From the IMG/VR virus record IMGVR_UViG_3300034150_000057, positions 1 through 38,398 of that record: DNA of 38,398 nucleotides; one strand, given 5' to 3'. The notes beneath the pieces were generated by a model. It did not search any database and was not told where the DNA came from. It was given only the letters and a program-made list of their open reading frames with translations. Origin of the DNA: a virus. The position numbers were made by a program, and so were the translations under genes. This document shows, in pieces, positions 7,034 through 37,984 of this stretch; position 1 is the stretch's first letter, and every line of letters starts with the position of its first letter.

Positions 7034-7037
7034 CCAC

Positions 7038-7475: not shown

Positions 7476-7632
7476 CATTCCCGGCGGGTTCCATGTGTCC
7501 GAACTCGCCAGGCTCGCCGACCGGATCCCACGTTGCGTTGTCCAGGCCTGACGTTCGGTTCGCTACCAAACCTCTCACGCCCGCTTCCCAACGACCCGGC
7601 CGGCGAGTCCGTTCTACCGAAGGGGATCAAGT

Positions 7633-9465: not shown

Positions 9466-10937
9466 TTGACGGCGAGGAGCTGATTCTCTCCGTCGAGGAT
9501 TCTCCGGAGCTGGAGGAGCTTGGCGCCAGGCGTCGCCACGACGGCCGGTGGATTCTCCCGGCCGCCTCGTGGATTGTCCGGTGGATTGCAGAGCTACTTG
9601 TAGGCGAGGAAGCCGCCACGGTCGCCCTACCGGCCCCACGGGACGTTGAGTGGGACCATCCCAACCGCCAGGATCTGTTCGCTCACCAGGTAGATCCGAT
9701 CACGCGGCTCGTCAGCCGGCCACACGGCCAGCTCGCCGTGATGTCGCCAGGCTTGGGGAAGACCATCGTTGCGATTCTCGCGGCCGACGTTCTCAAGGCG
9801 AACGTTCTTGTGGTCGCGCCGTCCTCGCTTCGATTCAATTGGTTCCGCGAGATCGACACTTGGTCCGACGGCCGTTCAACATCGTGGACCGTCGTCTCAT
9901 ACGACGAGCTATGGCGCAAGCCAAACCAGTTCAAGGGATTGCGGTTTGACGTTCTGATTCTCGATGAGTCCGTGCTCGTCAAGTCGCGAAATGCGAAACG
10001 CCACAAGGCGGCATTCAAGCTTCGCAGCCAGGCGCGATTGGTGTGGGAGTTGACCGGCAATCCCACGACGCGCTACGCCGACGACCTATGGGGCCAGCTC
10101 CACATTATCTGGCCGAAAGCATTCAGCTCTTATTGGCGGTTCGCTCGCCGCTATTGCTACACGCGGCCGACGGCGTGGGGCGAATCGGTGACGGGAACCC
10201 GCGCTACTCGCAACGCCTTGCGAGACTCGTCGGATCTGGCGTTCACCGTCCAGCAGGAGGATGTGCTCGAGCTGCCCGAGTATCTATTCGAGGTTCTCGA
10301 CGTCGAACTCGCTCCACGCCAGGCACGTGCGTACGACCAGATGCTCGCGGACTTCCGGTCGGAACTCGCCGGCGGGGAGATGAGCGCGGGCAACAAGGCA
10401 GCCAGGCTTATCCGACTCCAGCAGATTGCGTCCTGGGCGGATGACTCGTCAAAGCACAATGCTGTTCTCGAGCTGCTCGAGTCAGGGTACCTCGAGACGC
10501 CGGCGATTATCTGGACGCACTGGCTCGATGGCGCAGAGGAACTTGCCGAGCGGATCGCAGCTCTCGGCCCGTCGACAGCTTGGGTTCACGGCACACAGAC
10601 GGTCAAGCGCAAGGATGAATTGCTCGAGGAGTACAAGGCCGGCAACGTCGATGTTCTCGTGCTCAGCCTAGGTGTGGGCAAGTTCGGCCATACGTTCACC
10701 AACACGCAATCGATGGTGTACGTTGACAAGACATGGAACGCGGACGATTACTTCCAGTCGCTCCACCGCGTTCGCCGGATCGGCCTGAAGCATTCGCCGC
10801 TCGTGCTCACCATCCGTGCGCCAGGCACCGTCGATGACCTGGTCGAGAGGAACTTGACGCGGAAGATGAAGGATGCCAGCCGCATGACCAATGCTGAGCT
10901 GTCAACGCTACTCGCCGGATTAGGGAGAAATGCATGA
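9447..10937 (+). CDS. SNF2-family (DEAD/DEAH-like) helicase
   Basis: HQVDPI...MSPGLGKT (motif I), LILDES (motif II), and the helicase-C region VLVLSLGVGKFGHTFTN...LHRVRRIG. The start is uncertain: GTG at 9447 is in frame with track ORF 9336 and overlaps the upstream gene by 19 nt. Confidence 0.8.
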   Translation: MADQVLIDGEELILSVEDSPELEELGARRRHDGRWILPAASWIVRWIAELLVGEEAATVALPAPRDVEWDHPNRQDLFAHQVDPITRLVSRPHGQLAVMSPGLGKTIVAILAADVLKANVLVVAPSSLRFNWFREIDTWSDGRSTSWTVVSYDELWRKPNQFKGLRFDVLILDESVLVKSRNAKRHKAAFKLRSQARLVWELTGNPTTRYADDLWGQLHIIWPKAFSSYWRFARRYCYTRPTAWGESVTGTRATRNALRDSSDLAFTVQQEDVLELPEYLFEVLDVELAPRQARAYDQMLADFRSELAGGEMSAGNKAARLIRLQQIASWADDSSKHNAVLELLESGYLETPAIIWTHWLDGAEELAERIAALGPSTAWVHGTQTVKRKDELLEEYKAGNVDVLVLSLGVGKFGHTFTNTQSMVYVDKTWNADDYFQSLHRVRRIGLKHSPLVLTIRAPGTVDDLVERNLTRKMKDASRMTNAELSTLLAGLGRNA

Positions 10938-14676: not shown

Positions 14677-17220
14677 GTGATCTGCGGCAACTGTTCCTGC
14701 CCTCTCAAGGGGCGGCCAACCCAGGGCGCAAATCGTGGTGTGCCTGAAGGATTGGCGGTCGTGTGCGAGTCCCCCACCGCGGGGGACTCAGCCGGCCTGG
14801 CGCCATACCAAGGGGCGGCCGGAGAAATTCTGCGCAAGACGTTGAGCCTGGCTGGGTTCGACGTCAATTCCATTTACTGGGCGAATGCCGTGGCACGCCT
14901 GGTAGATGCCGGCGCGAAACCGTCGATGGATTCGATCCGCGCCTGCCGCGAGCGCCTGCTCACCGAACTCGAGGCGGCTCGCCCAACGCGCGTGCTCGCT
15001 CTCGGCGGCCTGGCATGGGCGGCCGTGATGGGGTTCGATAGCTCGTCACCAATTACTCGCGAACGCGGTCGGATGGCCTGGCTCGAACTTCCCTCTGGAC
15101 GTGTCCCGGTACTTGCGACAATCAATCCAGCCGCATGCCTGGTCGACACGGATTGGTGGCGCGACCTGGCGTACGACGTCTCCAAGCTGGCTACTCAAAA
15201 GGAACCGCTTGCTCAGCCGAACCCCGAGGATTACTGGATCCCCCAGACGTTCGCAGGCCTGGCCGAAAATCTTCGAGAGCTGGCGCAATACGCCGCCGTC
15301 TCCATAGACCTCGAGACGCAGCCTAGCATTGAAGATCTTATAGCTCTTCGCGAGTCGCCGCGACCGAAGGCCTGGGCCAAGGATCATCCGCAAGCCGGCC
15401 TTGATCCGGCTCGCTCACGAATTCTCAGCCTGGGCATCGGTACTCGCGACGGGCCGATCGTCATCGTTGACGACATACTGCTCGCCCAGGAAAACGTGGT
15501 CGAACTCCTCGAGGAATTCATCTGGGATCCAGAGCATGTCGTCGTGATGCACAATGCGAAGTTCGACATGAAGTTCCTCGCGGCGCTATTCGGCCGGCAT
15601 GCCCCGCGCGATGTTCCGATCGCAGACACGATGCTCATGAACTGGTTGCTGGATGAGCGGCCGGTACGATCCATGTTCAAGGCTCACGGATTGAAGGACA
15701 TCTCGCGCTACTTGTACGACACGCCGAATTATGAATTCGACTGGCCGACGTTCTGGGCGCAGTCCGAGGATGATCGCGACTACGCGGCGCTCAACCGGTA
15801 CCACGCTACCGACCTTCGCCAGACGGCTCGCCTGTACTGGGATCGCCTGGCCGAACTCGAAGCCGTCGGACTTATGCAAGTCCACGACGAAATTCTCATT
15901 CCTGCCACACGTGCGCTCGCACAAGCCGAGTTCAACGGGATCGCCGTGAACCGCGAGTACCTGGCCGAGTATCGTCGTGGCCGCGAACGCCGTCTCACGC
16001 GGCGCCTGGCGGGTTTACGGGCTGCCGTGGGCGATCCTGAATTCAACCCACGCTCGGCGCAGCAGGTTGAAGTTCTCGTCTTCGACGAATATGGTTTCGA
16101 GGCAATCGAAAGCGCCGGCTACAAGACTTCGCTAGGCAAGGCCGGCGAGTCATTCCTCAAGCGGAATACTCGCCAGGAACTACTCGGCGCGCTAGCCGAC
16201 CGCCATGCAATTCGCCGGCCGCGTGAGGCTCGAGTCCTGCGATCCATCGTAGCCTGGCGCCACGACGAAAAGGCGAAGGCGACGTACGCCGACGGCCTAC
16301 TCGCAGCTTCCATCCAGGATGGCCGGATCAGGGCGTCGTTCAATCTCGCCGGCGCATCTACCGGCCGGCTCTCCAGCTCAGAGCCGAACCTCCAGAACAT
16401 TCCGAAGCGCGGTCCAACGGCCGAGGCGATTCGCCGCGCGTTCGTCGCGCCGCCTGGCATGCTGCTAATGGAAGCGGATTACTCGCAGCTCGAGCTTCGC
16501 GTCGCGGCTTTGCTATCCCGCGACGAGAGGTTTGCATCCGTCTACCGGGATGGCCGAGACATCCACCGCGAAGTCGCCGCCGTGATGTTCCACAAGCCGG
16601 CCGAAGATCTCACGTACATGGAGCGCTATCTCGCGAAGGCCGTGGACTTCGGCGCGATTTATGGCCGCGGCGGAAAGGCTATCAGCTTGGGCGCGGAGAT
16701 GGCCTACTACGAGAAATTCATGGGCGGCACGCGCTGGACGGCGGACGAAGCCCAGGACTTCGTGGATCGATTCCTCAACGGGTTCCCGGATCTACGCGCC
16801 TGGCTGACACGCCAAGGCTACGAAGCAATTCGCGATCGGGAGACCAAGACGATCTTCGGTCGCGTTCGCCGTTACCCGTTCATGACGCGGCAAGGCGTGC
16901 TCGAGGTTCGCCGCCAGGCGATGAACACACCGATCCAGTCGGTCGCGTCGGATATCTGCCTGTCTGCGTTCAGCCGGCTTGTCATGCGGCTTGACCCGGA
17001 TATCGCACGCCCGCTGTTCCCAATTCACGACTCGATCCTATTCGAGGTGGACGCGCACCACATTGAACCGGTCGCTAGAATTGTACGGGAGGAAATGCAA
17101 ATCAACTTGCCGAGCGTGGTACTCGAAGCGAACCGCGGATTGGATATCCCATTCACGGTGGACGTCAAGGCCGGGCCGACATGGGCAGACAGCGACCAGC
17201 ATGATGTGGAGATAACATGA
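14677..17220 (+). CDS. Family-4 UDG-like domain fused to family-A DNA polymerase (3'-5' exonuclease plus polymerase)
   Basis: UDG4-like N-terminus: CGNCSC, VVCESPTAGDSAGLAPYQGAAGEIL, LATINPAACL. Exo motifs: SIDLET, HNAKFDMKFL, YHATD. Pol motifs: A DYSQLELRV, B RYLAKAVDFGAIYG, C PIHDSILFEV. Confidence 0.9.
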   Translation: MICGNCSCPLKGRPTQGANRGVPEGLAVVCESPTAGDSAGLAPYQGAAGEILRKTLSLAGFDVNSIYWANAVARLVDAGAKPSMDSIRACRERLLTELEAARPTRVLALGGLAWAAVMGFDSSSPITRERGRMAWLELPSGRVPVLATINPAACLVDTDWWRDLAYDVSKLATQKEPLAQPNPEDYWIPQTFAGLAENLRELAQYAAVSIDLETQPSIEDLIALRESPRPKAWAKDHPQAGLDPARSRILSLGIGTRDGPIVIVDDILLAQENVVELLEEFIWDPEHVVVMHNAKFDMKFLAALFGRHAPRDVPIADTMLMNWLLDERPVRSMFKAHGLKDISRYLYDTPNYEFDWPTFWAQSEDDRDYAALNRYHATDLRQTARLYWDRLAELEAVGLMQVHDEILIPATRALAQAEFNGIAVNREYLAEYRRGRERRLTRRLAGLRAAVGDPEFNPRSAQQVEVLVFDEYGFEAIESAGYKTSLGKAGESFLKRNTRQELLGALADRHAIRRPREARVLRSIVAWRHDEKAKATYADGLLAASIQDGRIRASFNLAGASTGRLSSSEPNLQNIPKRGPTAEAIRRAFVAPPGMLLMEADYSQLELRVAALLSRDERFASVYRDGRDIHREVAAVMFHKPAEDLTYMERYLAKAVDFGAIYGRGGKAISLGAEMAYYEKFMGGTRWTADEAQDFVDRFLNGFPDLRAWLTRQGYEAIRDRETKTIFGRVRRYPFMTRQGVLEVRRQAMNTPIQSVASDICLSAFSRLVMRLDPDIARPLFPIHDSILFEVDAHHIEPVARIVREEMQINLPSVVLEANRGLDIPFTVDVKAGPTWADSDQHDVEIT

Positions 17221-25596: not shown

Positions 25597-26228
25597 TTAG
25601 CGGCCACCCTTCTTCAGCACGCCGAGCGCACGCGCCATCGCCTCATCCTCGGCATCCGCGGCGCGTTGAGCCGCCAGGCCGGGACCCTGTTCTGCGATGA
25701 TCTGAAATGCGTGCATGGCTAGCCGCCAGTCTCCGGTAAGGGCGTCGAATCCACCGGATCGAAGAGCGAGGATTGCGATGGCGAGTTCAGGCTCGTGGGC
25801 CCAGACAATGGGTTCGGAGACGTCGAGTCGGTCTGCGGCGTAAGCGGCGGCGTACTCGACGGCTCGCGGTCCAAAGGGCCGAATACCGCTTCGGTGTACA
25901 AGTCTGCTGCGGCATCCGCGACCTCCTTCCCACCGGTATCCCAATCCAGCTGCCGCTCAATTTCGGCGAAGGTCAGCGGAATTGGCTTGCCCTGGTTGTC
26001 AACGAATGACCAGGCCTCAACCCCGTGGCGCATGAACGCCAGGCCTACATCCGCCGCCATCTCGCCGACGTCATTCGCCGCGGCCGCAGCACCTTGTGCC
26101 GCCAGGCCTAAACGAAGGCTGGGCTTCGGCCGCAATTCGACCCAGTCACCATCAGTGTGGGGACTGCCGGAGCAGCGGCAAATCCCCACATTCACGCGAA
26201 CCGGCTGCTCCCGGTTCGCGCCCGTCAC
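25597..26228 (-). CDS. Tail assembly chaperone G-T fusion produced by -1 programmed frameshift (about 210 aa)
   Basis: The 0 frame (25719..26228) and the -1 frame (open to 25597) overlap. The slippery heptamer CCCTTTG is at 25878..25872. The fusion would read ...EAVFGPL/GPRAVEYAAAY... The T-frame stop TAA abuts the tape-measure ATG. Confidence 0.7.
25719..26228 (-). CDS. Tail assembly chaperone (G product, 169 aa)
   Basis: It lies between the major tail and tape measure genes. The N-terminal ICRCSGSPHTDGDWVELRP resembles actinophage chaperones. The GTG start overlaps the major tail protein stop (GTGA). Confidence 0.75.
   Translation of the reverse strand: MTGANREQPVRVNVGICRCSGSPHTDGDWVELRPKPSLRLGLAAQGAAAAANDVGEMAADVGLAFMRHGVEAWSFVDNQGKPIPLTFAEIERQLDWDTGGKEVADAAADLYTEAVFGPLDREPSSTPPLTPQTDSTSPNPLSGPTSLNSPSQSSLFDPVDSTPLPETGG
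25872..25878 (-). other. -1 ribosomal frameshift slippery heptamer C CCT TTG (X XXY YYZ)
   Basis: Minus-strand codons GGC CCT TTG GAC are in the G frame. Slipping back 1 nt gives CCC TTT GGA CCG, which is exactly the frame of track ORF 25597..25944. Confidence 0.6.
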
Positions 26229-27241
26229 AGCGCAGCGAGCGTGTTGACGATGGTGTTGCGGATCGCAAATCCCAGGGTGGTGTCGTAAACCACGCGATAA
26301 GTGAGCGTGATCGTGGAGTTGCCACCAATCTCGCCGTCTGCCCGGGACATGAGCCTGGCCGCCGCCTGGCTGGTGAGCGAGTACGGCGTGGAACCCGTGA
26401 TGATCTCGGGGCTGATGAAGCGGCCTTCCAGGAAACGAAGCGGAACCGGATCGTCGTCGAGCGTGGCCGCTTCCGCCATGCTGTCCGCGGTCTTGGCCAC
26501 CTGGATTGCGATCTCAATGGTCCGCTCACCACGGCCATACCCGGCCAGCTTGAACCGAGTGTTGGAACCGTTGGCGAACCTCTTGCGGTCGAGGTTGTTC
26601 TGCCAGTTCACCGACCAGGTGTGGATCGCGTCCACCCACTTGGAACCGCCGATCCCACCGGCCGTGGTGTCGAGGAAGAACTCGAAGTCGGCGCCGTACA
26701 CCCAATTCGGTTCCGAATCCACGGAGAGGCCTGGCGTTCGCGCTTGCGCCATCTGCGCATCGGCGTATACCAACTGGGCATCCAGATCGACGGCCGCGAG
26801 GGTTTCATCGAAGCCGAAGGTATATGAGTCGATGACACCACCGACGCCTCGCAGGCCGTCGCTTGCATGCGTGTCATCACCCCACTCGTCGGTGAGGTAC
26901 TCGAAGTCATCGGCCACGAGCGATGCGTAATCGAAAACCCACGTCTTCGCCGTCGCTCCGCTCGCGACTTCCCCACCTTTGCCGGCCGCCGCGAAGATGT
27001 ACGGCGTGTCGTCATATGCGACCTTGCCGGTCCAGTTTGACGTGATCTCCTTCGCGCCCGAGAACGGCGCCATCGTCGGATCCAGCGAACCCGTATCCAC
27101 CTCGGGAAATTCGCGGTTCGGCTGAATTTCGATGGGTCCCCGGTACGGCAGGACGCGGGTGGCCGGGACGGCGGTCAGCAGCGCCGTTTGCTTTCCGATC
27201 TGATGCTTGCGAAAGCGGGTGTTACCGGCGATCGGGCTCAC
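26225..27241 (-). CDS. Major tail (tube) protein
   Basis: 338 aa. GAGGAG SD 8 nt before the GTG at 27241. It is in the canonical position between the tail terminator and the chaperones. Confidence 0.75.
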   Translation of the reverse strand: MSPIAGNTRFRKHQIGKQTALLTAVPATRVLPYRGPIEIQPNREFPEVDTGSLDPTMAPFSGAKEITSNWTGKVAYDDTPYIFAAAGKGGEVASGATAKTWVFDYASLVADDFEYLTDEWGDDTHASDGLRGVGGVIDSYTFGFDETLAAVDLDAQLVYADAQMAQARTPGLSVDSEPNWVYGADFEFFLDTTAGGIGGSKWVDAIHTWSVNWQNNLDRKRFANGSNTRFKLAGYGRGERTIEIAIQVAKTADSMAEAATLDDDPVPLRFLEGRFISPEIITGSTPYSLTSQAAARLMSRADGEIGGNSTITLTYRVVYDTTLGFAIRNTIVNTLAAL

Positions 27242-27728: not shown

Positions 27729-28193
27729 TCAGTCCGCCTTATTCCAAAGGTTGATGATTTCGACGCGAATGCCCGATTTGTACAACGCCTTGTCCACTGA
27801 TCGCTTGATGAACGGCTGGGCTCGCGTGCCGGGGTGATGGACAACCTTGGCGAAGGTATGCGGCTGGCCGGCCCGCGCTCGCCCGGCTAGCGTGACCTTC
27901 GCTCCCTTCGCCGGGAACCGAAGCATCTTCTTCCGGACTGGATGAATGTCGTGCTGGCGAGTTCCCTCGTCCAAGTAGATCACAACTGGCGATCCACGAA
28001 CTTCGGCGAAATCCTGGGTAATTCGGCCAAGCGAAATGGTCCGGCTGGTTGACGACGTCTTGCGTGGGATGTTGCGCTTCATCTCGGCGATGGTGCGAAT
28101 TCCAAGGTTCCTCATGAACTTGGTGGAACCGGCATCCATCGTCAGCGCGCCGAGCCGCCGATGCAGGCCCTCGGCACCCTCGAGGTCAGCCAA
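27729..28193 (-). CDS. HK97 gp10-like head-tail joining protein
   Basis: The TTG at 28193 overlaps the upstream stop (TTGGCTGA); an alternative ATG is at 28139. STKFMRNLGIRTIAEMKRNIPRKT...GRI fits the gp10-family pattern. Confidence 0.55.
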   Translation of the reverse strand: MADLEGAEGLHRRLGALTMDAGSTKFMRNLGIRTIAEMKRNIPRKTSSTSRTISLGRITQDFAEVRGSPVVIYLDEGTRQHDIHPVRKKMLRFPAKGAKVTLAGRARAGQPHTFAKVVHHPGTRAQPFIKRSVDKALYKSGIRVEIINLWNKAD

Positions 28194-28872
28194 CGGAAAT
28201 GACCTGCTGGCCGATCCGCCAGAGTTCGATGAATGACTTGACCTCGAGCGGCCAGGCGGACATGTCGAATACGTTGCCGGCCGGCGTCGCGATGGCCCCG
28301 GCGAGTAGCGCACCCGTCGGCCGCAAGGTCAGGAAACCGGCGAGCGCCTTCGTTGCCAGGCGCACCGGTTCCGGCAAGTCCGCGTCCAGGAAACCACCGT
28401 CACCGGTGAGCACGAGATCGCCAGGCAGCGAACCTCCGCTGCCGCCCCAATTGCCAGGCCACCGCGGAGAATCCAGGTTGCGGTCAAACCAGTCCGAATA
28501 GTGGAGCCACGACGGGCCGTCCGAGCGCGAGCCGTACGCCCGAAATTGGATGCCCAGGATAAGCCCCGTTCCGGAGGGGTCGGGCTGGAGCCAATAGCCT
28601 TGCTCGGCCACGAGCGCGGACCCCGCCAGGACCACGCTTGCCAGGCTCCGAAAACCTGGAAGCGGAACCGAAGCTGCGCCCTCGGTTGTCACCGTGAACG
28701 TGGCCGCCGGCCGATCGTGGAAGAAACGCCCGGTGGCGCGCTCCAGCATATACGACGCGGCTCGAAGATTTGAGGTGAGGATGCCCGAGGAATACTTGCT
28801 CTCCGCCGCAACCGGATCCAGGTCCATGTATTCGCGGAGCTGCTCTTCCGTGGCGAACATTGGCGTCGTCAT
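28186..28872 (-). CDS. Head-tail adaptor / connector protein (gp6/gp15-like)
   Basis: The N-terminus FATEEQLREYMDLD...SSGILTSNLRAASYMLERATGR is typical of head-tail connector proteins. ATGA-coupled to the upstream glycosyltransferase. Confidence 0.6.
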   Translation of the reverse strand: MTTPMFATEEQLREYMDLDPVAAESKYSSGILTSNLRAASYMLERATGRFFHDRPAATFTVTTEGAASVPLPGFRSLASVVLAGSALVAEQGYWLQPDPSGTGLILGIQFRAYGSRSDGPSWLHYSDWFDRNLDSPRWPGNWGGSGGSLPGDLVLTGDGGFLDADLPEPVRLATKALAGFLTLRPTGALLAGAIATPAGNVFDMSAWPLEVKSFIELWRIGQQVISVG

Positions 28873-30065
28873 ATCGAACTCTCCAAGTAGCTCGCCAGTT
28901 TCCCAGCCTCAACAGGCCAGGAAAATTTCGTTCGCACCTGCGTCACCGCCTGCGCCGCCATGAGCCCGCGCTCTCGAGGAGAATCCAGCATCTCCCCGAC
29001 AGCATTACCGAACTGGTCTTCATCAACGGCGCACCAGAAGTGCCCATACTCGTTGTCAATCAATTCGACCGGCACCACAACGCCGGCCTTCCCGATCACC
29101 TCGGGAACCGCCGAGTAATTCGCACCGACAGCCGGCACTCCGCAGGCAAGCGCCTCTGCGATCGTCAAACCAAATCCTTCAGCTGACGTTGAAGCATACA
29201 CGTCGGCCATATTGTACAGGGCGCAGAGCGTGGGCCGGTCAAGTAGAAATCCACGATCGTGGTACCCGGTGTTCACCATCTGCTGCGAGATAGCCGGCGG
29301 AAAGTGCGAGTGCAAATCTCGCAAGTCTCCACCCGGGTCTGAGCTTCGGCAGTGCATGACGAGCAGGACGTCCGGCCTGGCGAGCAGCACCGGTGCCATT
29401 GCCCGCATCAACGAGGCGTATCGCTTGCGCGGCCAGTTGGCGTCGGTCCTGAGAACCACGCGCGCCTTGGGGTCAACGTGAAAGTATTCCCTGGCCTCGG
29501 CCTTGGATCGGATCACCGTCGAACCCAGGCGAATCGGCCGCGTTGCCGTGGCCGGGTAGAAATCCTGGCTCACGCCGTGGTAGATCACCGGCGGCCGTGA
29601 ACCCATGATCTTCTGGATCTCATCCGCACCGAATTCCGACATGGCGATCGGGCGAACGAATGACCAGAGCTTTGCCCATGCTGGCGGCAAGCCGATGCCT
29701 TCGACGGGAACGTAGTGGAACGTTGGGATTCGACGGAACATTTCCTCGCCGGCCTCATCCATGAAGACCAGCAAACGAGCAGCGTAGAAATCTCCGAGCA
29801 AGACGATAGCCTCGGGTTCCCAGGCGTCCGGCCAGGCACCGGCTTCCACGATCTTGGCCGGGCTGAAATCCCCCGCCGCCAGCCATCCCTCCCGGCGTTC
29901 GCTCAAGCTGAGCGTCCGCGATGCGAATGGTTCCGCCAGGTCACCCAATTCGTTTTGAGAAACGAACCTCACGTCGTGGCCGAGCGCGAGCAGCTCCCGC
30001 CCCATGTCCATCGTCACGGTACCGAACCCGGTCCCCGCCAGGTCACCGAAGAACAGGAGTTTCAC
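28869..30065 (-). CDS. GT-B fold glycosyltransferase (GT4/Glycos_transf_1-like)
   Basis: 398 aa. The C-terminal signature STSAEGFGLTIAEALACGVPAVGANYSAVPEVIG is the EX7E-type motif of GT4 enzymes. The GTG start overlaps the upstream stop (GTGA). Confidence 0.8.
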   Translation of the reverse strand: MKLLFFGDLAGTGFGTVTMDMGRELLALGHDVRFVSQNELGDLAEPFASRTLSLSERREGWLAAGDFSPAKIVEAGAWPDAWEPEAIVLLGDFYAARLLVFMDEAGEEMFRRIPTFHYVPVEGIGLPPAWAKLWSFVRPIAMSEFGADEIQKIMGSRPPVIYHGVSQDFYPATATRPIRLGSTVIRSKAEAREYFHVDPKARVVLRTDANWPRKRYASLMRAMAPVLLARPDVLLVMHCRSSDPGGDLRDLHSHFPPAISQQMVNTGYHDRGFLLDRPTLCALYNMADVYASTSAEGFGLTIAEALACGVPAVGANYSAVPEVIGKAGVVVPVELIDNEYGHFWCAVDEDQFGNAVGEMLDSPRERGLMAAQAVTQVRTKFSWPVEAGKLASYLESSI

Positions 30066-30382
30066 AAGACCAGGCGCGAACGAATCTCGGCGCGCTTCGC
30101 AGCCTCTGGATCCGTCGGAACCGCGCTCGCTTTGGCGGCCAAGTCTGGGATCGCCTTGACAAGTCTCAACGCCTCGAGGGGCGTCATCCCAGCCGGCAAG
30201 ATCACCACCGCATACCGGCCGTGAGAAACGACCACGTTGAACTGGAGCGCAGCCGGAGGAGCAGAATACTCCTCTGCCGGCGAAGTGCCGGCACGGTCGC
30301 CCGGTGCTTCCCGTGGGAGATCCGGATCGTGCTCCTCCTGGGCATCGACCTGCCTGGCCACAGCCGTCGCCAGGTCATCCAC
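30062..30382 (-). CDS. Hypothetical protein between the two glycosyltransferases (106 aa)
   Basis: The GTG at 30382 overlaps the GT2 stop (GTGGATGA). In frame with track ORF 30062..30463. Acidic/Pro-rich N-half. Confidence 0.5.
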   Translation of the reverse strand: MDDLATAVARQVDAQEEHDPDLPREAPGDRAGTSPAEEYSAPPAALQFNVVVSHGRYAVVILPAGMTPLEALRLVKAIPDLAAKASAVPTDPEAAKRAEIRSRLVL

Positions 30383-31004
30383 TGGAATTCGCCCCGAGCT
30401 TCGCGTAAAGCGCGTCAGCCCTGGCAATTTCGTCGGCGCCCTTGGAATGAATGAGATACGCATCTCGCGGCGCGGAGCCCATGATCCACGTATCCCGCGT
30501 CAAATGCTCGGGCAACCAGGTATCTCCGCCTACCGGTCGGATTTCTACCAGCTCGTGGATCGGACGATAGAAGCGCGCCAGCCCGGTGCGGAATAGCCGG
30601 CAATGCCAGTGGTACCGCATCTCCGGCCCAAGCAAGCCATCCCACCAATTGCGTGTCCAGTACAGCCAGGCTAGCGGATCCCGCTCAAGTTCAATCTCAC
30701 CACGATCAACCATGCCAATGTGTTCCAGCATGGCCACAGATGGAAGTTCATCAGGATCAAGCACCAACGTCCAATCTGCCTGGCACTCGACGAGCCCTTC
30801 GTTGCGTGCCCAGGAGAAATCGTCAAGCCATCCCCGGTACGTTACTCGCGTCTGATCCCATGTCGACATGGCTGCGCGAATTTCAGCCGGCGATCCGGTA
30901 TCGACGATCACGCACTCGCTGATAATCGGTTGCACGAACGCGACCAGCGCAGCCAGGCGAGCAAGCGGCGGATCTCGCACGATCATGGCCAGCGCGACCG
31001 TCAT
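30375..31004 (-). CDS. GT-A fold glycosyltransferase (family 2-like)
   Basis: LAMIVRDPP...VIVDTGSPAE...WLDDFSWARNEGL...DWTLVLDPDE matches GT2 motifs (DxD-like DPD, DDFSxARN). The ATG at 31004 has a GAGAGGA SD 6 nt upstream; the track start is TTG at 31010. Confidence 0.75.
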   Translation of the reverse strand: MTVALAMIVRDPPLARLAALVAFVQPIISECVIVDTGSPAEIRAAMSTWDQTRVTYRGWLDDFSWARNEGLVECQADWTLVLDPDELPSVAMLEHIGMVDRGEIELERDPLAWLYWTRNWWDGLLGPEMRYHWHCRLFRTGLARFYRPIHELVEIRPVGGDTWLPEHLTRDTWIMGSAPRDAYLIHSKGADEIARADALYAKLGANSSG

Positions 31005-31028
31005 TCGCAATCCTCTCTGAAATTGGTA

Positions 31029-31064
31029 AACCCCGGCACAGCCCAGAGAGGATGTGCCGGGGTT
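31029..31064 (-). terminator. Stem-loop terminator/attenuator downstream of the major capsid gene
   Basis: Perfect 12-bp stem AACCCCGGCACA / TGTGCCGGGGTT with a 12-nt loop. On the minus strand it is followed by TTTACCAATTTC. It lies 21 nt after the capsid stop and before the glycosyltransferase operon. Confidence 0.55.
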
Positions 31065-31084: not shown

Positions 31085-32413
31085 TTACGCGATCAGGTTC
31101 GAGATTCGCTGGAAGTGGCCCGTGGTCACGTAGGGATCGGCATTGAATCCGATCTCCTCTTCACCACGGAAACCGGTGAGGTTCCGATCCCAGCGCTCGC
31201 CCGCCTCCTCCGAGACGTCCACTCGGTACTGGTCGCCAGTGAACAGCTCAGCGACCTTGTACGCGCCGACGACCAGATTGTCGGCCGGCATGTTCGGATC
31301 GCCGAGCGTTCGCAGACCCCAGATCCGCATGTCGAGGCCGGTCGCATCGACGCTCGTCGGCCCGCCCGACGGCGCGATGAAGAAGCCCGCTTCGTCGGTC
31401 CCCTGGGCGACCATCGTCCAGAAGTCCGCGGCATTCACGACGACGCCATCCGGATTGACGGCGCGATTTGCGATCGGCCCGGCGGCCGCCGCAACTGCGC
31501 TCGCTGCGGAACCAGCGAGCGTGGACGCCGACGGCGTGAACGTCGTGTGGAATTCGCCGGTGGTTCCGATCGACGTGAGGATGCCCTTCGGCTCGTTGGT
31601 GCCGGAACCACGCAGGACGTAGTACGACTCGCCGAGGCCGAATGCCCGGCCCAGGCGCGACCGGATGTTCTTCTCCGCCACTCCGCGCGAATTGCGCAGG
31701 AGCTGGTTGCCGACGTCGTAGATCTCGGCGAGCGTGTACATCGTCGCCGTGTACTTGTCCGTGAGGAGATCGCGCTTCGGCTTCAGCTCACCGGTTCCGA
31801 CGATCGTGGCTCGCGTCGGAGCGAGGCCCTCCGTCGGAATTTCGACGCCCGTGACGAATCCGACCGGCGTGACCGTGAGGAGCGTCCGGTACGGATTCAG
31901 CGGCACTGCGATCTCAATGAACGACTGGAGCACCGCGCTCGGAACGATGTTCCCGCCTGCGGCCGGCGTGTCTCCGAGCGTGGCCTTCGACTCCGGCGGG
32001 ACGTCGGCCCACACCGAGCCCATGCCCTCGAGCTGCGCCTTTCCCCAGGCATTCAGATCCGGGCTGACACGGCGGCTCTTGGACGCCCACAGCGAGTAGA
32101 AGAACCCGGCGCTCGCAGCCAGGTCGCCAGGCTCGATACCGGCCCCGATTGCTCGCGCCTTGCTCGGCGCTCGCACGCCGGCCTTCAGCTCGTTGATGTC
32201 CTTCAGCGCCTGGGCGTATTCCGCTTCGCGCGCCGCGGCCTTGCGCTCGTCCGCGATGGTGGCCATCTGCTGGCTGAGATCGCCGAGCTGCGACTTCAGC
32301 TCGACGAGATCACCATCGCCGGCCTTGATCTTCTCGGCGATATCCTCCATCGTCTTGAGGATGACGCCCTGCTGTTCGCTCAGGCCGTCGATATGCTGGC
32401 TGAGATCAGGCAT
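31085..32413 (-). CDS. Major capsid protein, HK97-like, with N-terminal delta (scaffolding) domain
   Basis: 442 aa. The first ~100 aa are coiled-coil (LSEQQGVILKTMEDIAEKIK...LKDINELKA), as in HK97 gp5. It follows a prohead protease. GGGAGGA SD. Confidence 0.85.
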   Translation of the reverse strand: MPDLSQHIDGLSEQQGVILKTMEDIAEKIKAGDGDLVELKSQLGDLSQQMATIADERKAAAREAEYAQALKDINELKAGVRAPSKARAIGAGIEPGDLAASAGFFYSLWASKSRRVSPDLNAWGKAQLEGMGSVWADVPPESKATLGDTPAAGGNIVPSAVLQSFIEIAVPLNPYRTLLTVTPVGFVTGVEIPTEGLAPTRATIVGTGELKPKRDLLTDKYTATMYTLAEIYDVGNQLLRNSRGVAEKNIRSRLGRAFGLGESYYVLRGSGTNEPKGILTSIGTTGEFHTTFTPSASTLAGSAASAVAAAAGPIANRAVNPDGVVVNAADFWTMVAQGTDEAGFFIAPSGGPTSVDATGLDMRIWGLRTLGDPNMPADNLVVGAYKVAELFTGDQYRVDVSEEAGERWDRNLTGFRGEEEIGFNADPYVTTGHFQRISNLIA

Positions 32414-32435: not shown

Positions 32436-33209
32436 TTACTGGCGAAGTTGTTCGGCCAGGCGGCTGGTCGCGTCCACGGACTGGACGAATTTCTGCCACC
32501 GGGCTTCGTCTTCGTTCGACAGCGCTCGCTCGTTCTTCGCCTTGACGCTCGCCAGCAGGGTTGCGTCTGGGTCAGCTCCGAGGTTGTGCAGTTCGGATAG
32601 TACCGTGCGGATACCGGCCAGTGCGATATCCTCCGGCATCTGATCCAATATGGCCTTGACCGGCTGGATGATGCTGAGCGTGTTTTGCGGCGACGTGCTC
32701 AGGGTCTGCATCATGTGCGCCCAGGCATCGATCCGCCGGCCCGCCTTCGCGACGCTGCCAGGCACCGGCTGCGACGAGCCGAAGATCTGGGCGCCTCGCG
32801 CACGCAGGCGAGCGACGAGTGCCAGGCGCTTCTCGCCGGCATCCAGCCAGAGGTCGGACCACCAGCCGAATTCATCCGGCTCGGCATCCAATTCGGACTT
32901 GCCCAGGAATACGCCGGTCAGCACGCCGGTTGGATCCCCATGCGCGGGGCTTGGCGGCCGGGCAGCATGGTGCCAGTCGACGGGACGCACTCGGTCCTGC
33001 CGCAATGCACGGTGCACGAAGGGATCAGTTCCCTCGTGGAAATACTCGCCGTCGACGTCGAGTCCCTTCGCGTACACGTTGCTCGGAACCGGCCCGCCGA
33101 ACGGGATCGACAGAATTCGCCCAGGCCGCTGGCCGGCGTAGAAACCCGCGAGTTCGTCGGGATCTGCGCCGAGGTTTGCCTTGACGTCAAACTGTGTCTT
33201 CAAGTCCAT
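32436..33209 (-). CDS. Prohead (capsid maturation) serine protease, HK97 gp4/S78-like
   Basis: The ATG at 33209 is preceded by GGAGGAG (5-nt spacer). Motifs DVDGEYFHEGTD, RPVDWHH and IFGSSQPVPGS fit the His/Ser protease pattern. It sits immediately upstream of the capsid gene. Confidence 0.6.
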   Translation of the reverse strand: MDLKTQFDVKANLGADPDELAGFYAGQRPGRILSIPFGGPVPSNVYAKGLDVDGEYFHEGTDPFVHRALRQDRVRPVDWHHAARPPSPAHGDPTGVLTGVFLGKSELDAEPDEFGWWSDLWLDAGEKRLALVARLRARGAQIFGSSQPVPGSVAKAGRRIDAWAHMMQTLSTSPQNTLSIIQPVKAILDQMPEDIALAGIRTVLSELHNLGADPDATLLASVKAKNERALSNEDEARWQKFVQSVDATSRLAEQLRQ

Positions 33210-33360
33210 CGGGCTCCTCCGTTTCCGCGGCACGCTCGAGCTGCATCCCGCAATGGCGGAGCGCCAGGTCCAGGCGCGCCGCGTCGTCTTCGGTGTGAGC
33301 CTTCGGTGGGAACGCCTCGTCAAGCGCTGCGATCACGTGCGCTGCGTCCGTCGTGTCCAT
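33187..33360 (-). CDS. Possible small acidic protein (57 aa)
   Basis: Own translation: MDTTDAAHVIAALDEAFPPKAHTEDDAARLDLALRHCGMQLERAAETEEPDGLEDTV. It overlaps the protease start by 23 nt. Below the track cutoff. Confidence 0.35.
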   Translation of the reverse strand: MDTTDAAHVIAALDEAFPPKAHTEDDAARLDLALRHCGMQLERAAETEEPDGLEDTV

Positions 33361-33363: not shown

Positions 33364-33465
33364 CTAGCCTTTCTTCGCCGGCTTCGGTTTTGCTTTGGGC
33401 GGCGGCTTCGTGACAACCAGCTCGCCCTTATTCCAACCGAACCGCTTGGAACTTTCCTTCGTCAT
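33364..33465 (-). CDS. Possible small basic protein (33 aa)
   Basis: Own translation: MTKESSKRFGWNKGELVVTKPPPKAKPKPAKKG. The ATG overlaps the portal-fusion stop (ATGA at 33462-33465). Confidence 0.3.
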   Translation of the reverse strand: MTKESSKRFGWNKGELVVTKPPPKAKPKPAKKG

Positions 33466-36413
33466 AGCGTTGCCACGATGTGTCGAATTCCTTCCGCGTC
33501 AGTCACATCGGAGATGATCTTCAGCTTCGTGCCGCGCGGGAAGATCAGCTCCGCCTCGCGATCGTTGAAGAATTCCCAGGCGGCATGTGCGCCGGCCGGC
33601 ACCCGAATTTCCATGTACGCCGGGTTGTCCTTCTGGTCAGCGAATTCCTCGCCGGTCCGACGGCTCAGGGACGTGGACATGAACCCAGGATCGGTCACTT
33701 CTCCGCCCGTCAGATTGCCAGGCAGGTACGCGCTATCCAATCCGCGGAACACCTTGATCGGTTTGGGGATGGTATTCCGCACGATCGCCCCGTCCAACGC
33801 GGCGATCTGCACCTTGTGATCCTCGACCTGGTTTCGACGGATGGCATTGTTCAACGCTGTCGATGACTTGTAATACGACCCCAGTGCAGAGACTTCCTCG
33901 GGCGCCAGGCTCTCGCGCCAGGCTGCGAATTCCGCGTCACCCCACTTGACACCTTCCACGTGGCTGTCAAATTCGGTTGCCTCACTCGTCGCCTCGAGTT
34001 CCTCGCCAGCTTCGGCCAGGGCGTCGGGATCAATCTCATCCTCGCCGCTGCCGCCCTCGACCGGATAGATAGGCGAGCTGTCATCAATTAGCGGGATCCA
34101 ATCCAATGTGCCGTTCGGATGATCTTCGATCTCGGCCGCTTCGTCGACGGTGAAGACCTGGCCATTGCGCTCGGCGCACTCCTCATCAAAGTCGCCGTCG
34201 ATCGCTTCGACCTTCTCGACACCCAATTCGCGGTAGCTCTCGACTGCGGCGTCGTTGTACGCGAACGCCGATTCGGTCCGGGCGATTCGCTCCGCGCGCG
34301 ACTCGCCGAATTCAGCCAGGCCGCGCACGGCTTCGATCGCATCGTTGAGCGTGGCTTCTTCGTTCTTGAAGGTATATGCCAGCGCCTCGCGAACCGCATT
34401 CCGCGTGGTCTCATTGATGCCGGCGATGCGATTGCCGCCATGGTCCAGGACCTTCTCGGCCACGCGATCCTCGAGATGGATCGGCGCGGCCTTCACCGGC
34501 CCGGCCTTGGTCAGCACGTTCACCACCCCGCCGGATGCTTCCGTCGCGATCCGTTCGATGTGAGGTGTGAGCGCTGCCGCGAGCTGGGCATCCTGGCGCG
34601 ACGACCAATACGCACCGGTGTCACCAGGCTTGCTGCGGAGATGCCCAATTCCGACAGTGCGAAGCCGCGTGATGACCTGCTCCAATTGCTGTGCCAGCGC
34701 CCGATTTGTGCTCGCCTCGAGGGGCGTGAGCGTCTTCCGTTCGATGCGCGTTCGCAGACCCTTCAGCATGGACTGGCGCAGCTTTGCCTTCGCCTCGGCG
34801 TCAGGTTCGCCAGGCGCCTTGACCGTGACAGGCTGGAGCCCGGTGTGCTGGATCGGCGGAAGTCCAACAGCACCGAGCGAGCCAGCCGGGTCGAAGCCCG
34901 AGCGAATGAGGATACCAACCGCGTTGACCTGGTCGAGCAGCGGCGCCGGCGGAGCGCCTGGCACCGGCGGCGAATTTGCCTCCGGCTTCGGAGTGGGAGG
35001 CGTCTCGGGAAGAGCCTCGTGCGTGGCCGTCGATTCGGATTCGGGCGCAGCACCTTCGATGCCAGGCAGACCCTCGCCCGGGCCGGCCGGCATCGGCGCG
35101 ACCGGCAAGCTGACGGAGGCGACGTAAGCCTCGACCATCCCGCTCGGCAGCAGCACCAATTCGTCGAGCAGGCCGCCCTCCGGTGTTTTGATCTTGTCAC
35201 CGAATGGCTCGAGCCCGAGAATGGTCCGGCGCTCGGCCACCGTCAGCGGCTGGTCAAGAGCCTTCTGCGCCTTCTCATACCTGGGCGAGTCATCGTCAAA
35301 TTCCGGCTCGTCAATGATGAGTTCGACCGTGAGGTTGAATGCCTTGTACCGGTCGAGCAGCCCGAACTGAATCGTCTCGCGGATCGTCTCGAGCCGATCG
35401 TGCACCGCACCCTGCCAGAGCACGGCCTCATCATAGGACTTGGTTCCGCCGCTGTTCAGCCCGGCCGGCGCCTTCTGTCCGACCTGCGAACCTGGCACCC
35501 GCCAACCAGTGAGGATGTCGTCACGAGTCATTGCCATGAGTTCGACAAGCTCGAGATCGTCCATATTTGCCGTGGTCTGCATGAAGTCGATCGGACCGCG
35601 CGCAACCTGGAGTCGCTTCGCCGCCTGCGGTGACTCCACGATATTGCGCCAGTCATTCACGAATTGGGTCCACTGTTCCGGAGTGATCGTCGTCGCGTTG
35701 TCCTTCGGCGAGACGATGCCGCTCAGCCGGCCGCCGGCACTGAGCACACCCGAAACGTGAGCGTCGCCCAGGCGAGTGAGCGCCGCCTTCTCGCCCCATG
35801 CCTCGACCAGCCCGATACCGAAATGGCCGAAGTCAGGCGGATCCAGGTAGAACGAGAGAACCTCTTCCGCCTCGAGCGGTGTGCCGCCCTCGTCAATTGG
35901 ACGGTCCAACGACCAGCCGAGCAGGTTGCCGGCCTTGTCTTCGGCGGCGTACATCCGCGCCGGATTCAGATAGAGAATCGCCAGCGGAGTTCCGCCCAGT
36001 GCCTCGCTCTGGTCGAGGTACCAGAAGCCGGTACCGCACAGGCCGGCATGCCTGGAGGTGAGCGTCCACATTTCGCGACGCGCCATCTTGCGCTTGAGGT
36101 CTGTCGCGGCCTGCGGCTTCTCGAGCAAATCGCGAATGGCAACGAGTGCCGGTGGGCTGTCGTCGTTGATCAGCTCGCCGTCGTCAGTCTCGAGGTGCCA
36201 GGCCACACCGCCCGCCCGGCTAGATACCGCCTGCTCCGCCAGGCGAACCCAGGGATGCCGGCGATATAGCTCCTGAGCGGCAAGCGCCATCTTCTGGGGA
36301 GTGCGGCCGAGTGACCACATCGGCGTCGTGTACGCGAGCGCGGAAGCACCCGGCCCGGAGTAAGCACCGAAGCTGCCCGCCTTGGCGGAACGCCGGCCAA
36401 TGAGAATACTCAC
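33462..36413 (-). CDS. Portal protein fused to a MuF-like head morphogenesis domain and a C-terminal ADP-ribosyltransferase toxin domain
   Basis: 983 aa. Portal-like region aa ~30-430. Pro-rich linker aa 431-540. MuF/SPP1 gp7 signature GESRAERIARTESAFAYN...EDHPNGTLDW (aa ~545-775). Acidic linker. ART triad: KVFRG (R890), FMSTSL (S913-T-S915), REAELIFPRG (E953-x-E955). Confidence 0.85.
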   Translation of the reverse strand: MSILIGRRSAKAGSFGAYSGPGASALAYTTPMWSLGRTPQKMALAAQELYRRHPWVRLAEQAVSSRAGGVAWHLETDDGELINDDSPPALVAIRDLLEKPQAATDLKRKMARREMWTLTSRHAGLCGTGFWYLDQSEALGGTPLAILYLNPARMYAAEDKAGNLLGWSLDRPIDEGGTPLEAEEVLSFYLDPPDFGHFGIGLVEAWGEKAALTRLGDAHVSGVLSAGGRLSGIVSPKDNATTITPEQWTQFVNDWRNIVESPQAAKRLQVARGPIDFMQTTANMDDLELVELMAMTRDDILTGWRVPGSQVGQKAPAGLNSGGTKSYDEAVLWQGAVHDRLETIRETIQFGLLDRYKAFNLTVELIIDEPEFDDDSPRYEKAQKALDQPLTVAERRTILGLEPFGDKIKTPEGGLLDELVLLPSGMVEAYVASVSLPVAPMPAGPGEGLPGIEGAAPESESTATHEALPETPPTPKPEANSPPVPGAPPAPLLDQVNAVGILIRSGFDPAGSLGAVGLPPIQHTGLQPVTVKAPGEPDAEAKAKLRQSMLKGLRTRIERKTLTPLEASTNRALAQQLEQVITRLRTVGIGHLRSKPGDTGAYWSSRQDAQLAAALTPHIERIATEASGGVVNVLTKAGPVKAAPIHLEDRVAEKVLDHGGNRIAGINETTRNAVREALAYTFKNEEATLNDAIEAVRGLAEFGESRAERIARTESAFAYNDAAVESYRELGVEKVEAIDGDFDEECAERNGQVFTVDEAAEIEDHPNGTLDWIPLIDDSSPIYPVEGGSGEDEIDPDALAEAGEELEATSEATEFDSHVEGVKWGDAEFAAWRESLAPEEVSALGSYYKSSTALNNAIRRNQVEDHKVQIAALDGAIVRNTIPKPIKVFRGLDSAYLPGNLTGGEVTDPGFMSTSLSRRTGEEFADQKDNPAYMEIRVPAGAHAAWEFFNDREAELIFPRGTKLKIISDVTDAEGIRHIVATL

Positions 36414-36416: not shown

Positions 36417-36587
36417 TCAACTCCCAGGCGTATCGTCAGGTGGACGGCGGTCACGTACAAACCACAGTGCGAGAAAAGCAAAAGCCGCGACGATCAGAGC
36501 GAGCGGCGGGTAGACCATCGCACCGCCCGTGACGGCGAGTACGAAGCCGGCAACGAGAAGAACATCGTCAGCCTCAAGCTTGCTCAC
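36417..36587 (-). CDS. Possible small membrane protein between terL and portal (56 aa)
   Basis: Own translation: VSKLEADDVLLVAGFVLAVTGGAMVYPPLALIVAAFAFLALWFVRDRRPPDDTPGS. The GTG overlaps the terL stop (GTGA). The stop lies 3 nt before the portal GTG. It fills the only gap in this operon. Confidence 0.45.
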   Translation of the reverse strand: MSKLEADDVLLVAGFVLAVTGGAMVYPPLALIVAAFAFLALWFVRDRRPPDDTPGS

Positions 36588-37984
36588 GCGACCATGCTGA
36601 AGCTGTCGCCTGGCGAGTCTCCGACCGATCCACCGAGCATTAGCTCGGTGAACGCCCAGGCCAGGGCGTCGAGCCGGCCAGGGCTGTCCCCAGACTCAGG
36701 CGTCCAGTGCGTCAATTCGTACTCCAGCTCAGGCATGGGCCGAACGTGTGAAATTCGATCTTGCTCGTACAGCATGGCGATCGGCTCGGCACGCGTTCGC
36801 TTCCCTCGAGATGCGGTGACGAGTTTGATCGGTCCTTGCCAGCCGATCATATCATCACCCCGGCGCGCGGCATTGATCGTGAGTCCAACCATCTCACCGC
36901 CGTTGTTCGATTCAGCCACGATCGAATCAGCACCGAAATCAGACGCTGCTTGCAGGGCGCGCTTTGCCCAGGCCGTCGGACCGACACGCGCCGACCGATC
37001 GTCCAATACGTATCCGCGACCGTCGTATGCCAGGCCGGCCACCACGATGCCGGCCTCGTCCGCCTGCTCGCCGCTGGTCGCATTTGGATCTACCGCGACG
37101 ACGATGCGCGCCAGGTCGGGAATGGTTTGTCCGCCCTTGATGATGAGTGGGGCCGGCCGATAGCGAATATCGTTCGTCGTCCACAATGCGCCAGGCGCGT
37201 CGAGAAGCAATTCCGCGAACAGCTCTTGACGGCCCAGGCGTGTACCCTCGTACGCCTCGAGGACATTCGCTCTGAATGTAGGGGCGAGGTTCTCCAGGTT
37301 GTCATAGCTTGATCCTCGCGTGACGGCCGTGCTCGCCAGCGTGGGCAGGCCAGGCGTGTCGGGCGTTCCAACGAGCAGGCGCACCGGGCGTGGCGTCGTG
37401 GTCATGATCGCCTGCGGTTCGGCGCCTAAGCGCAAACCCAACTTGAGGTTTGACCAGGTGGTTCCCACGGTGTCGCCGGCGTTCGCATCGATCCAGTACG
37501 CAGGCTCGTCACCCCAGGCTTTGTGATGCTGCGGACCACGCAGGCTCGCCGGCTTCTCGCTTGAGTAGACCTTTGCACGAGACTCGTTGGCCAGGAACAA
37601 TTCGCCCATGGACCGGTTCCACGCCGTGTCGCGCGCTCCGCCTCGCAACTCGTGTGGTGCGAACGCGGCGAGCAGGCCGGACTCGCCTTCCACCATCGTG
37701 TCGCGCCCATCTGCGAACGTCTGCGCGACCAACGCAATCCGGGATCCAGGTTCGTCGCGCATCCACTGCGCTACGGTCTCAGCCCCTGTTCGCGTCTTGC
37801 CCCATCCGCGGCCGGCCATGATGAGCCACGTGAACCAGCTCCCGCCAGGCGGCGCCTGGTCTTCACGACGCACGCGAGACCAGGATTTCTCGGCTGCCCG
37901 CTTTTGCTTACTCCGCAGGGAGATAGCCGCCAGGCGCAGGACTCGCTCCTGGTCGCGCGGCGAGAGGTCAGCTAGCTTGGGCAT
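36584..37984 (-). CDS. Terminase large subunit
   Basis: 466 aa. Walker A-like IMAGRGWGKTRTG. ATPase N-domain and a C-terminal nuclease-like region with acidic residues (VAVDPN...ESNNGGEM). Located upstream of the portal. Confidence 0.85.
   Translation of the reverse strand: MPKLADLSPRDQERVLRLAAISLRSKQKRAAEKSWSRVRREDQAPPGGSWFTWLIMAGRGWGKTRTGAETVAQWMRDEPGSRIALVAQTFADGRDTMVEGESGLLAAFAPHELRGGARDTAWNRSMGELFLANESRAKVYSSEKPASLRGPQHHKAWGDEPAYWIDANAGDTVGTTWSNLKLGLRLGAEPQAIMTTTPRPVRLLVGTPDTPGLPTLASTAVTRGSSYDNLENLAPTFRANVLEAYEGTRLGRQELFAELLLDAPGALWTTNDIRYRPAPLIIKGGQTIPDLARIVVAVDPNATSGEQADEAGIVVAGLAYDGRGYVLDDRSARVGPTAWAKRALQAASDFGADSIVAESNNGGEMVGLTINAARRGDDMIGWQGPIKLVTASRGKRTRAEPIAMLYEQDRISHVRPMPELEYELTHWTPESGDSPGRLDALAWAFTELMLGGSVGDSPGDSFSMVA

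Follow-up and report, generated by a model that had tools for sequence, protein, structure and literature searches.

A candidate virion-glycosylation island with a lineage-wide GT4 glycosyltransferase between the capsid and head-tail adaptor genes of an uncultured phage

We analyzed a stretch of viral DNA of 38,398 nt (IMG/VR record IMGVR_UViG_3300034150_000057, positions 1 to 38,398; hereafter the window), a 38.4-kb phage genome with 62% GC, focusing on three genes that lie between its capsid and head-tail adaptor genes, two of which encode predicted glycosyltransferases (GTs). All features of this island are on the minus strand. Its upstream border is the gene of an HK97-type major capsid protein of 442 amino acids (31085-32413; PF05065, E=2e-21; phrog_10), followed by a hairpin with a 12-bp stem and a 12-nt loop (31029-31064), a GT-A (GT2-type) glycosyltransferase gene (30375-31004; 209 amino acids; PF00535), a GTG-initiated open reading frame (ORF) for a 106-amino acid protein to which family searches gave no function (ORF106; 30062-30382), and a gene for a GT4 (GT-B, retaining-type) glycosyltransferase of 398 amino acids (28869-30065; PF13692, PF00534). 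The head-tail adaptor gene (28186-28872; 228 amino acids; phrog_442, E=4.5e-7) forms the downstream border. These features, first noted from the sequence alone across 28869-31064, were all recovered at those positions. The ribosome-binding site GAGAGGA precedes the ATG at 31004 that opens the GT-A gene. Coupling of all the genes by GTGA/ATGA overlaps, as claimed in the original prediction, holds for the 4-nt ORF106/GT4 (GTGA) and GT4/adaptor (ATGA) junctions but not for the GT-A stop and the ORF106 GTG start, which overlap by 8 nt (GTGGATGA).

To learn how this arrangement is distributed, relatives were collected from IMG/VR by scanning with a GT4 alignment, which yielded 79 loci, and the bias of a GT4-based search was removed by a second scan with a capsid alignment as anchor. 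In the 57 GT4-anchored loci with both the capsid and the GT4 gene, the scaffold gene precedes that of the capsid, and the variable block, GT4, adaptor, neck and tail tube come after it in that order, with the adaptor gene always past GT4. Contigs of this lineage are abundant among the soil-type samples of IMG/VR, examples with GT4 being IMGVR_UViG_3300045303_000058, 3300049795_000021 and 3300047322_000329. With the capsid as anchor, GT4 was found between capsid and adaptor in every one of the 52 loci that extended far enough downstream. This makes GT4 a universal and ancestral gene of the capsid lineage and contradicts the earlier view of a two-GT operon inserted into the head module: only the GT-A gene and ORF106 are accessory and vary. 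Nor do the two GTs form a conserved unit, as a GT-A homologue was detected in just 17 of 82 GT4-anchored loci (L001-L082; L001 nearly duplicates the window). The island of the window is the most reduced form, with a block ahead of GT4 of 1.0 kb, the smallest recorded, versus 1.35-6.8 kb (median 3.8) in the relatives.

The content of this block is highly diverse, with 41 different architectures among the 57 loci. Pfam families matched by 145 island ORFs were most often FkbM methyltransferases (19), GT2 (12) and GT1-type glycosyltransferases (12, 7 and 6), with other methyltransferases and cytidylyltransferases also among the most frequent. NAD-epimerases/dehydratases (4), nucleotidyltransferases (3 and 2) and a hexapeptide acetyltransferase family (2) were rarer, and some loci carry FdtA/WxcM, asparagine-synthase-like and KAS-III-like genes. 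No DNA-related family occurs among the 25 commonest of the 48 Pfam families matched by island ORFs, and in type the genes ahead of GT4 are those of glycan biosynthesis. GT4 is lacking in those tail-anchored relatives whose tail tube is divergent and whose head genes are different, indicating that this gene goes with the head-neck-tube set and not with the distal tail. Inheritance of the island follows that of head, neck and tail-tube genes and not that of nucleotide-metabolism genes. A scan anchored on the terminase returned 80 unrelated contigs, since that enzyme family is widespread. One locus that seemed to be an island-less relative (L394) was rejected; it also lacks the adaptor and tail-tube genes, with a tape-measure homologue (66% identity) only 1.2 kb past the capsid gene (2185-5457), and is probably a chimeric assembly or a deletion. 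Across L002-L082, head and tail modules appear to be joined by recombination at the island. One further relative lies near the end of a 156,688-bp contig (L004, ENA contig_48461, locus 1906-10018) and carries, besides GT4, methyltransferase, epimerase and TOD1/MUCI70-like genes. This contig may come from a prophage or a far larger phage, or be misassembled.

Both GT family assignments, originally proposed without database searches, were borne out. The GT4 protein scored above the Pfam cut-offs of PF13692 (49.2 vs 27) and PF00534 (40.1 vs 26.4), and its EX7E pair, E296 and E304, is invariant in 33 aligned GT4 sequences, together with 69 other columns. An AlphaFold2 model derived from 33 homologues (predicted local distance difference test, pLDDT, 92.1; predicted template-modeling score, pTM, 0.90) is predicted to adopt the standard GT-B fold of two Rossmann-like domains. 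Foldseek placed the putative GT of chlorovirus NY2A (3oy2) as the best match of this model (template-modeling score, TM, 0.76; E=1e-18; 16% identity), with MshA, BshA, PimA and WaaG nearly as good (TM 0.6-0.77), and the modeled fold thus points to no particular acceptor. The protein has 921 homologues in the protein collection searched, many of them 50-60% identical and encoded on 36-43 kb contigs. Megablast of the window against GenBank phages returned no match, and tblastn against the same phages gave three weak matches for GT4 and none for GT-A. A close full-length cellular relative of GT4 was not found in 185,579 bacterial and archaeal species, each represented by one genome; the best match in these GTDB genomes is 33% identical and sits on a 34-kb contig binned into a Chloroflexota metagenome-assembled genome, and the other matches cover just the generic C-terminal domain. 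Accordingly, the GT4 subfamily, notably its acceptor-side N-terminal domain, appears virus-specific. Mean pairwise identity of GT4 among the relatives is 0.50, against 0.45 for the capsid protein, and the highest among five proteins compared from head, neck and tail tube.

The GT-A protein matched PF00535 with 30.5 bits (cut-off 23.3) and contains the motif DDFSWARN along with a DxD motif (D83-P-D85, within LDPDE). The DxD, DDFSxARN, WHCRLF and HE motifs are invariant across 14 GT-A sequences, so that, on proper alignment, the catalytic residues are in place in both GTs. Comparison of the GT-A family profile with the PDB retrieved GmaR (4.4e-12), SunS (3.8e-8) and a ThuS-like protein (4.4e-5), all remaining GT2 enzymes exceeding 0.01, and the alignments revealed W-x-DDFS-x-ARN and HE as motifs common to the GT-A enzyme, GmaR and SunS. 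GmaR O-GlcNAcylates the flagellin of Listeria, and SunS and ThuS glycosylate glycocin peptides; hence, the significant matches of GT-A among solved structures are glycosyltransferases that act on proteins or peptides. The window protein scored 15.9 bits against the SunS equivalog TIGR04195 (cut-off 350) and consists of a bare catalytic domain of ~200 amino acids, devoid of a C-terminal acceptor-recognition region of tetratricopeptide repeat (TPR) or helical type. Although it may work like SunS and GmaR, it belongs to neither equivalog. A single-sequence structure model of the protein (pLDDT 34) was unusable and left out of the evidence. The usual place of GT-A homologues is directly after the capsid gene. 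Among the structural genes of the window, that for GT-A has the lowest GC content at third codon positions (GC3, 0.66), consistent with its later acquisition, and among the genes compared the top value is that of the capsid gene (0.84). One of the homologous genes (L019, 3483-4253) has an in-frame stop and may be a pseudogene or reflect a sequencing error.

ORF106 had no match in Pfam, PHROG, NCBIfam or PADLOC. Among 1.84 billion representatives, only four non-self matches were retrieved, proteins of 66-101 amino acids that have the C-terminal ~60 residues in common, and besides the near-identical L001 the sole homologue in the fetched loci is encoded by L002 (5047-5337). By these searches ORF106 is nearly an orphan. 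That it could be the remnant of a GT was discarded, as it bears no similarity to the GTs of the islands.

The original prediction also pointed to a strong hairpin directly behind the capsid gene, and this was confirmed. It begins 20 nt past the capsid stop codon, and its GC-rich arms, AACCCCGGCACA and TGTGCCGGGGTT, pair perfectly over 12 bp around the 12-nt loop. In a 96-nt context the predicted folding energy is -40.3 kcal/mol (z=-3.6), and none of 200 shuffled sequences folded equally well. A simple consensus scan for terminators did not call the hairpin, owing to its loop of more than 8 nt and its weak T tract (TTTACCAATTT), the tail consisting of only three T followed by ACCAATTT. Most related loci have a long GC-rich stem-loop within ~20 nt of the capsid stop, wholly different in sequence from locus to locus, and stem-loops without a U tract are common at that position. 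In 33 of 55 loci the structure is more stable than every same-sized control window within the capsid gene (~9 expected by chance), and it is missing where only 8-28 nt separate the capsid gene from an adjoining GT-A gene. The stem-loop is a recurrent feature of the 3' end of the capsid gene, and this recurrence, which fits attenuation or message stabilization, lends support to the role proposed for the hairpin in the original prediction. The hairpin of the window is a putative attenuator, U-tract-less terminator or mRNA-stabilizing 3' hairpin.

Phage-encoded glycosylation of virions has precedents with which the island can be compared. The virions of Che8, Corndog and Myrna are glycosylated by phage GTs (PMC12363180, PMC11256854), the proven capsid-glycosylation enzymes of mycobacteriophages being Che8 gp108 and gp110 and Corndog gp38 (PMC12363180). 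Corndog carries a methyltransferase and three GT genes between portal and protease (PMC4351075), inside the head module as in the window, whereas the Che8 GT genes are located at the genome end. All these systems (Che8 gp108-110, Corndog gp35-38 and Myrna; Freeman et al. 2023, as cited in PMC12363180, PMC11256854 and PMC4351075) comprise, like the window, phage-borne soluble GTs, often accompanied by a methyltransferase, in phages of high-GC hosts. The GT genes of the window are placed with virion genes, with a codon overlap to the adaptor, and the Che8 GTs (~390 and ~210 amino acids) are similar in size to those of the window (398 and 209). The window differs from the mycobacteriophages in its capsid–adaptor slot and in the combination of one lineage-universal GT with a hypervariable block, and its sequence is metagenomic. 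In the Pontimonas phage phiPsal1 (MG835450; L316, 5510-9727), the capsid gene is followed by those for GT1, an S-adenosylmethionine (SAM) methyltransferase, GT2, neck, tail completion and tail tube. The GT genes thus lie between capsid and neck, and GT1 is 26% identical to the GT4 of the window, but the capsid belongs to another family and the GT order is reversed, with GT1 first and GT2 adjoining the neck gene. This phage was never studied and is now lost (PMC6106888). We found no comment on its capsid/GT arrangement in the literature.

The island has further parallels in other known systems. GmaR, SunS and ThuS, the best and sole significant solved relatives of the GT-A enzyme, have in common with it the DDFSxARN, DxD and HE motifs, but the full-length enzymes possess the C-terminal acceptor-binding/TPR regions that it lacks. 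Chloroviruses glycosylate their own capsid protein, and the NY2A enzyme is, like GT4, a virus-encoded GT-B protein; it differs in its low sequence identity, eukaryotic host and lack of synteny. The T4 alpha- and beta-GTs and the GTs associated with 5mYOX or thymidylate synthase are likewise phage GT-A or GT-B enzymes that use host nucleotide sugars, and a cytosine-type thymidylate-synthase homologue is encoded in the window genome too. Unlike in those DNA-modifying systems, the GTs of the window are acidic and not clustered with the base-modifying gene, which is missing from the relatives. Bacterial O-antigen and flagellin islands combine, as here, a fixed slot with hypervariable content (GTs, methyltransferases, epimerases, nucleotidyltransferases and acetyltransferases), but the type found in the window is viral, small (1-7 kb) and without flippase, polymerase or lipid-carrier genes. 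New here are the different enzyme set, the fixed capsid–adaptor slot, and the lineage-wide anchor enzyme with its variable block.

From the sequence comparisons, we consider it probable that the three genes constitute a minimal virion-glycosylation island, that is, one serving the glycosylation of virion proteins. This preference is backed by the fixed position of the island, its content, the relatives of the GT-A enzyme, the conservation of GT4, the independent assortment of island and nucleotide-metabolism genes, and the phiPsal1 and mycobacteriophage precedents. Several observations weigh against it. The Ser/Thr-rich C-terminal extensions that the capsid and tail-tube proteins of mycobacteriophages reportedly carry are absent from the capsid and tail-tube proteins examined here. 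Pairwise distances of GT4 scarcely correlate with those of the capsid protein (rho 0.06) and only weakly with those of the adaptor and tail tube (0.32-0.33); no acceptor can be named from such weak correlations, which point to recombination within the island. The GTs have no detectable homology to Che8 gp108/gp110 or Corndog gp38 (BLASTP E=0.56 and 1.4; hhalign probability 0.2%). Moreover, the window genome encodes a cytosine-type thymidylate-synthase-like enzyme, and MshA- and PglH-like GT-B enzymes glycosylate 5-hydroxymethylcytosine (5hmC) in DNA (bioRxiv 10.1101/2023.12.21.572611), so that the fold alone is no argument against a DNA acceptor.

Two side observations concern proteins of the tail. 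Near the C-terminus of the tail tube, the pattern YD[ST][ST]L.Y occurs only in relatives that carry GT4, and those without GT4 have an acidic YD.[DE]D[LF].GVF instead; the conserved YD[ST][ST]L motif could be an acceptor site or plain phylogeny. The gene at 25719-26228 (minus strand), which comes after that of the tail tube in the position of a tail chaperone, ends in a Ser/Thr/Pro-rich tail of ~45 amino acids, present in 74 of 85 relatives, which may be an artefact of a programmed-frameshift region. This tail was not used as evidence, because some relatives without GT4 carry it too.

Glycosylation of DNA, the alternative raised together with the original prediction, would proceed from 5-hydroxymethyl-deoxycytidine monophosphate (5-hydroxymethyl-dCMP) made by the thymidylate-synthase-like enzyme, with GT4, GT-A or both adding sugar to the hydroxymethylcytosine (hmC) before packaging as a protection against host nucleases. 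We regard this as unlikely, although its starting point stands: the best solved relative of the enzyme (8605-9465, plus strand) is the CMP hydroxymethylase MilA (E=4.8e-18), an Asp occupies the Asn177 position and is invariant in 30 homologues, and the protein falls under every NCBIfam thymidylate-synthase cut-off. Together, these features make a modified cytosine in the phage DNA plausible, hydroxymethylation and methylation being indistinguishable at this level. Phage GT-A and GT-B enzymes do hypermodify 5hmC, the latter often together with thymidylate-synthase homologues (bioRxiv 10.1101/2023.12.21.572611), and GTs expressed late would still be in time to act before packaging. However, DNA-hypermodification GTs usually cluster with the base-modifying gene (same source), and the GTs of the window lie 19 kb from theirs, in a different module on the opposite strand. 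Of 80 loci with the thymidylate-synthase-like gene as anchor, not one has the GTs of the window within 10 kb, and a profile search of 232 loci, 3.3 Mb in all, whose anchor was GT4, a capsid gene or a tail gene, detected no gene of the thymidylate-synthase family; the GT4-bearing relatives were read as loci, none a proven complete genome. Within this set, a 32-kb contig covered end to end (L372, L056 and L232; completeness unproven) lacks such a gene in any frame, and the sole Pfam match among 10 of its ORFs outside the structural genes is an ERF recombinase. The closest relative of the replication module of the window (L476) retains the thymidylate-synthase-like gene and its neighbors, with a polymerase 52% identical, next to 10 kb of late genes unrelated to those of the window. 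The thymidylate-synthase-like gene is thus part of a replication module that assorts independently of the late modules. The T4 beta-GT is not among the top 50 Foldseek matches of the GT4 model, a weak test, and, also as weak evidence, both GTs are acidic (net charge -10 to -12; -11.7 for GT4, whose N-terminal acceptor domain has an isoelectric point of 4.7). That the nearest solved relatives of GT-A use proteins or peptides likewise speaks against DNA. The comparative data therefore strengthen the preference for the virion that the original prediction had expressed.

Another conceivable acceptor belongs to the host envelope: a cell-wall glycopolymer, lipid carrier or receptor would be modified, preventing superinfection or re-adsorption to lysed cells. 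Temperate phages are well known to encode GTs that change the surface glycans of their hosts, and the closest characterized enzymes to GT4 (MshA, BshA, PimA, PimB' and WaaG) use small molecules or lipids. We nevertheless deem this quite improbable, as the lack of a close full-length GT4 relative in cellular genomes is unexpected for a host-envelope enzyme, and every relative has GT4 at its set place within the head-neck operon, not next to genes of lysogeny or lysis. The ORFs scanned included no integrase, and one invariant enzyme with hypervariable content recurs in phages that differ in their tails and presumably in their hosts. Very improbable, in our estimate, is a protein acceptor outside the virion, such as a chaperone, scaffold, host factor or defense protein, whose glycosylation would serve an assembly or takeover step without producing a coat. 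GmaR and SunS do glycosylate specific proteins or peptides, GT4 shows no co-variation with the capsid protein, and it matches the Pfam family 'GT4 in conflict systems' marginally (27.4 bits vs a cut-off of 26). That match is limited, though, to the generic C-terminal nucleotide-sugar domain, and assignment to a defense system was rejected upon the lack of any PADLOC match. Large, variable sugar-modifying islands are also easier to reconcile with diversifying pressure on an exposed glycan than with one regulatory sugar.

The remaining genes of the window place the island in its genomic setting. The late genes on the minus strand start with that of the large terminase (36584-37984) and continue with a 983-amino acid portal–MuF-like–ADP-ribosyltransferase fusion (33462-36413; C-terminal PF03496, E=4e-21) and a putative scaffold gene (32436-33323) ahead of the capsid gene. 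The presence of a toxin domain in the portal/MuF fusion suggests that this enzyme is borne in the capsid or ejected from it. Past the adaptor come neck and tail-completion genes, the putative tail tube (26225-27241; 338 amino acids), the tape measure and the genes of the distal tail. The plus strand carries the early genes, among them those for dCMP-deaminase-like and thymidylate-synthase-like proteins, an SNF2 helicase, a PD-(D/E)XK nuclease and a family A DNA polymerase (14677-17220) whose N-terminal domain is of the uracil-DNA-glycosylase superfamily. This polymerase has just four close homologues among 5.8 billion proteins, indicating that the replication module containing it is not common to the relatives. 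The dCMP-deaminase-like gene, a gene for a 131-amino acid protein and the thymidylate-synthase-like gene form a trio (7633-9465) with a counterpart in L476 (3125-4937), which may represent a pathway for a modified pyrimidine; the deaminase-like gene accompanies the thymidylate-synthase-like gene in 56 of 80 IMG/VR loci.

If the island does glycosylate the virion, its components could act as follows. The hairpin would lower read-through or stabilize the capsid message, so that the enzymes are made in catalytic and not stoichiometric amounts, and ORF106, GT4 and the adaptor would be translationally coupled through the stop/start overlaps. GT4, with its phage-specific acceptor domain, would transfer a first sugar from a host nucleotide-sugar to Ser/Thr of a virion protein, the capsid protein, the tail tube or both, and the GmaR/SunS-like GT-A enzyme would add a second sugar or serve a second site. 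Relatives with larger islands would make longer, methylated or otherwise modified glycans, and the outcome would be a variable glycan coat on the particle. We extend this scheme to a tentative proposal, which we doubt somewhat more than we believe: GT4 may be a core, virus-specific morphogenetic enzyme that primes virion O-glycosylation, and the block ahead of it a 'glycan serotype' locus, a recombination hot spot where head and tail modules meet, that diversifies the coat, much like O-antigen loci, in a large uncultured lineage of high-GC tailed phages.

Glycosylated phage particles were reportedly first demonstrated in 2023, in a few mycobacteriophages, with little sign of them in other phages. 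In the present case, all sampled members of a large lineage of environmental phages have a non-homologous enzyme set at a fixed slot adjoining the capsid gene, with GT4 conserved beyond the capsid protein itself and the remaining block varying like a bacterial surface-antigen locus. The two enzymes of the window would offer a minimal system for engineering glycan-coated phages. Should the sugars be on the particle, virion glycosylation would be common in nature and predictable by gene order alone, and the diversifying selection acting on it could not be antibody evasion. Were GT4 indeed the core enzyme of a serotype-like locus, virion glycosylation would be widespread and ancient in environmental phages, and not a curiosity of mycobacteriophages, with a driver other than animal immunity.

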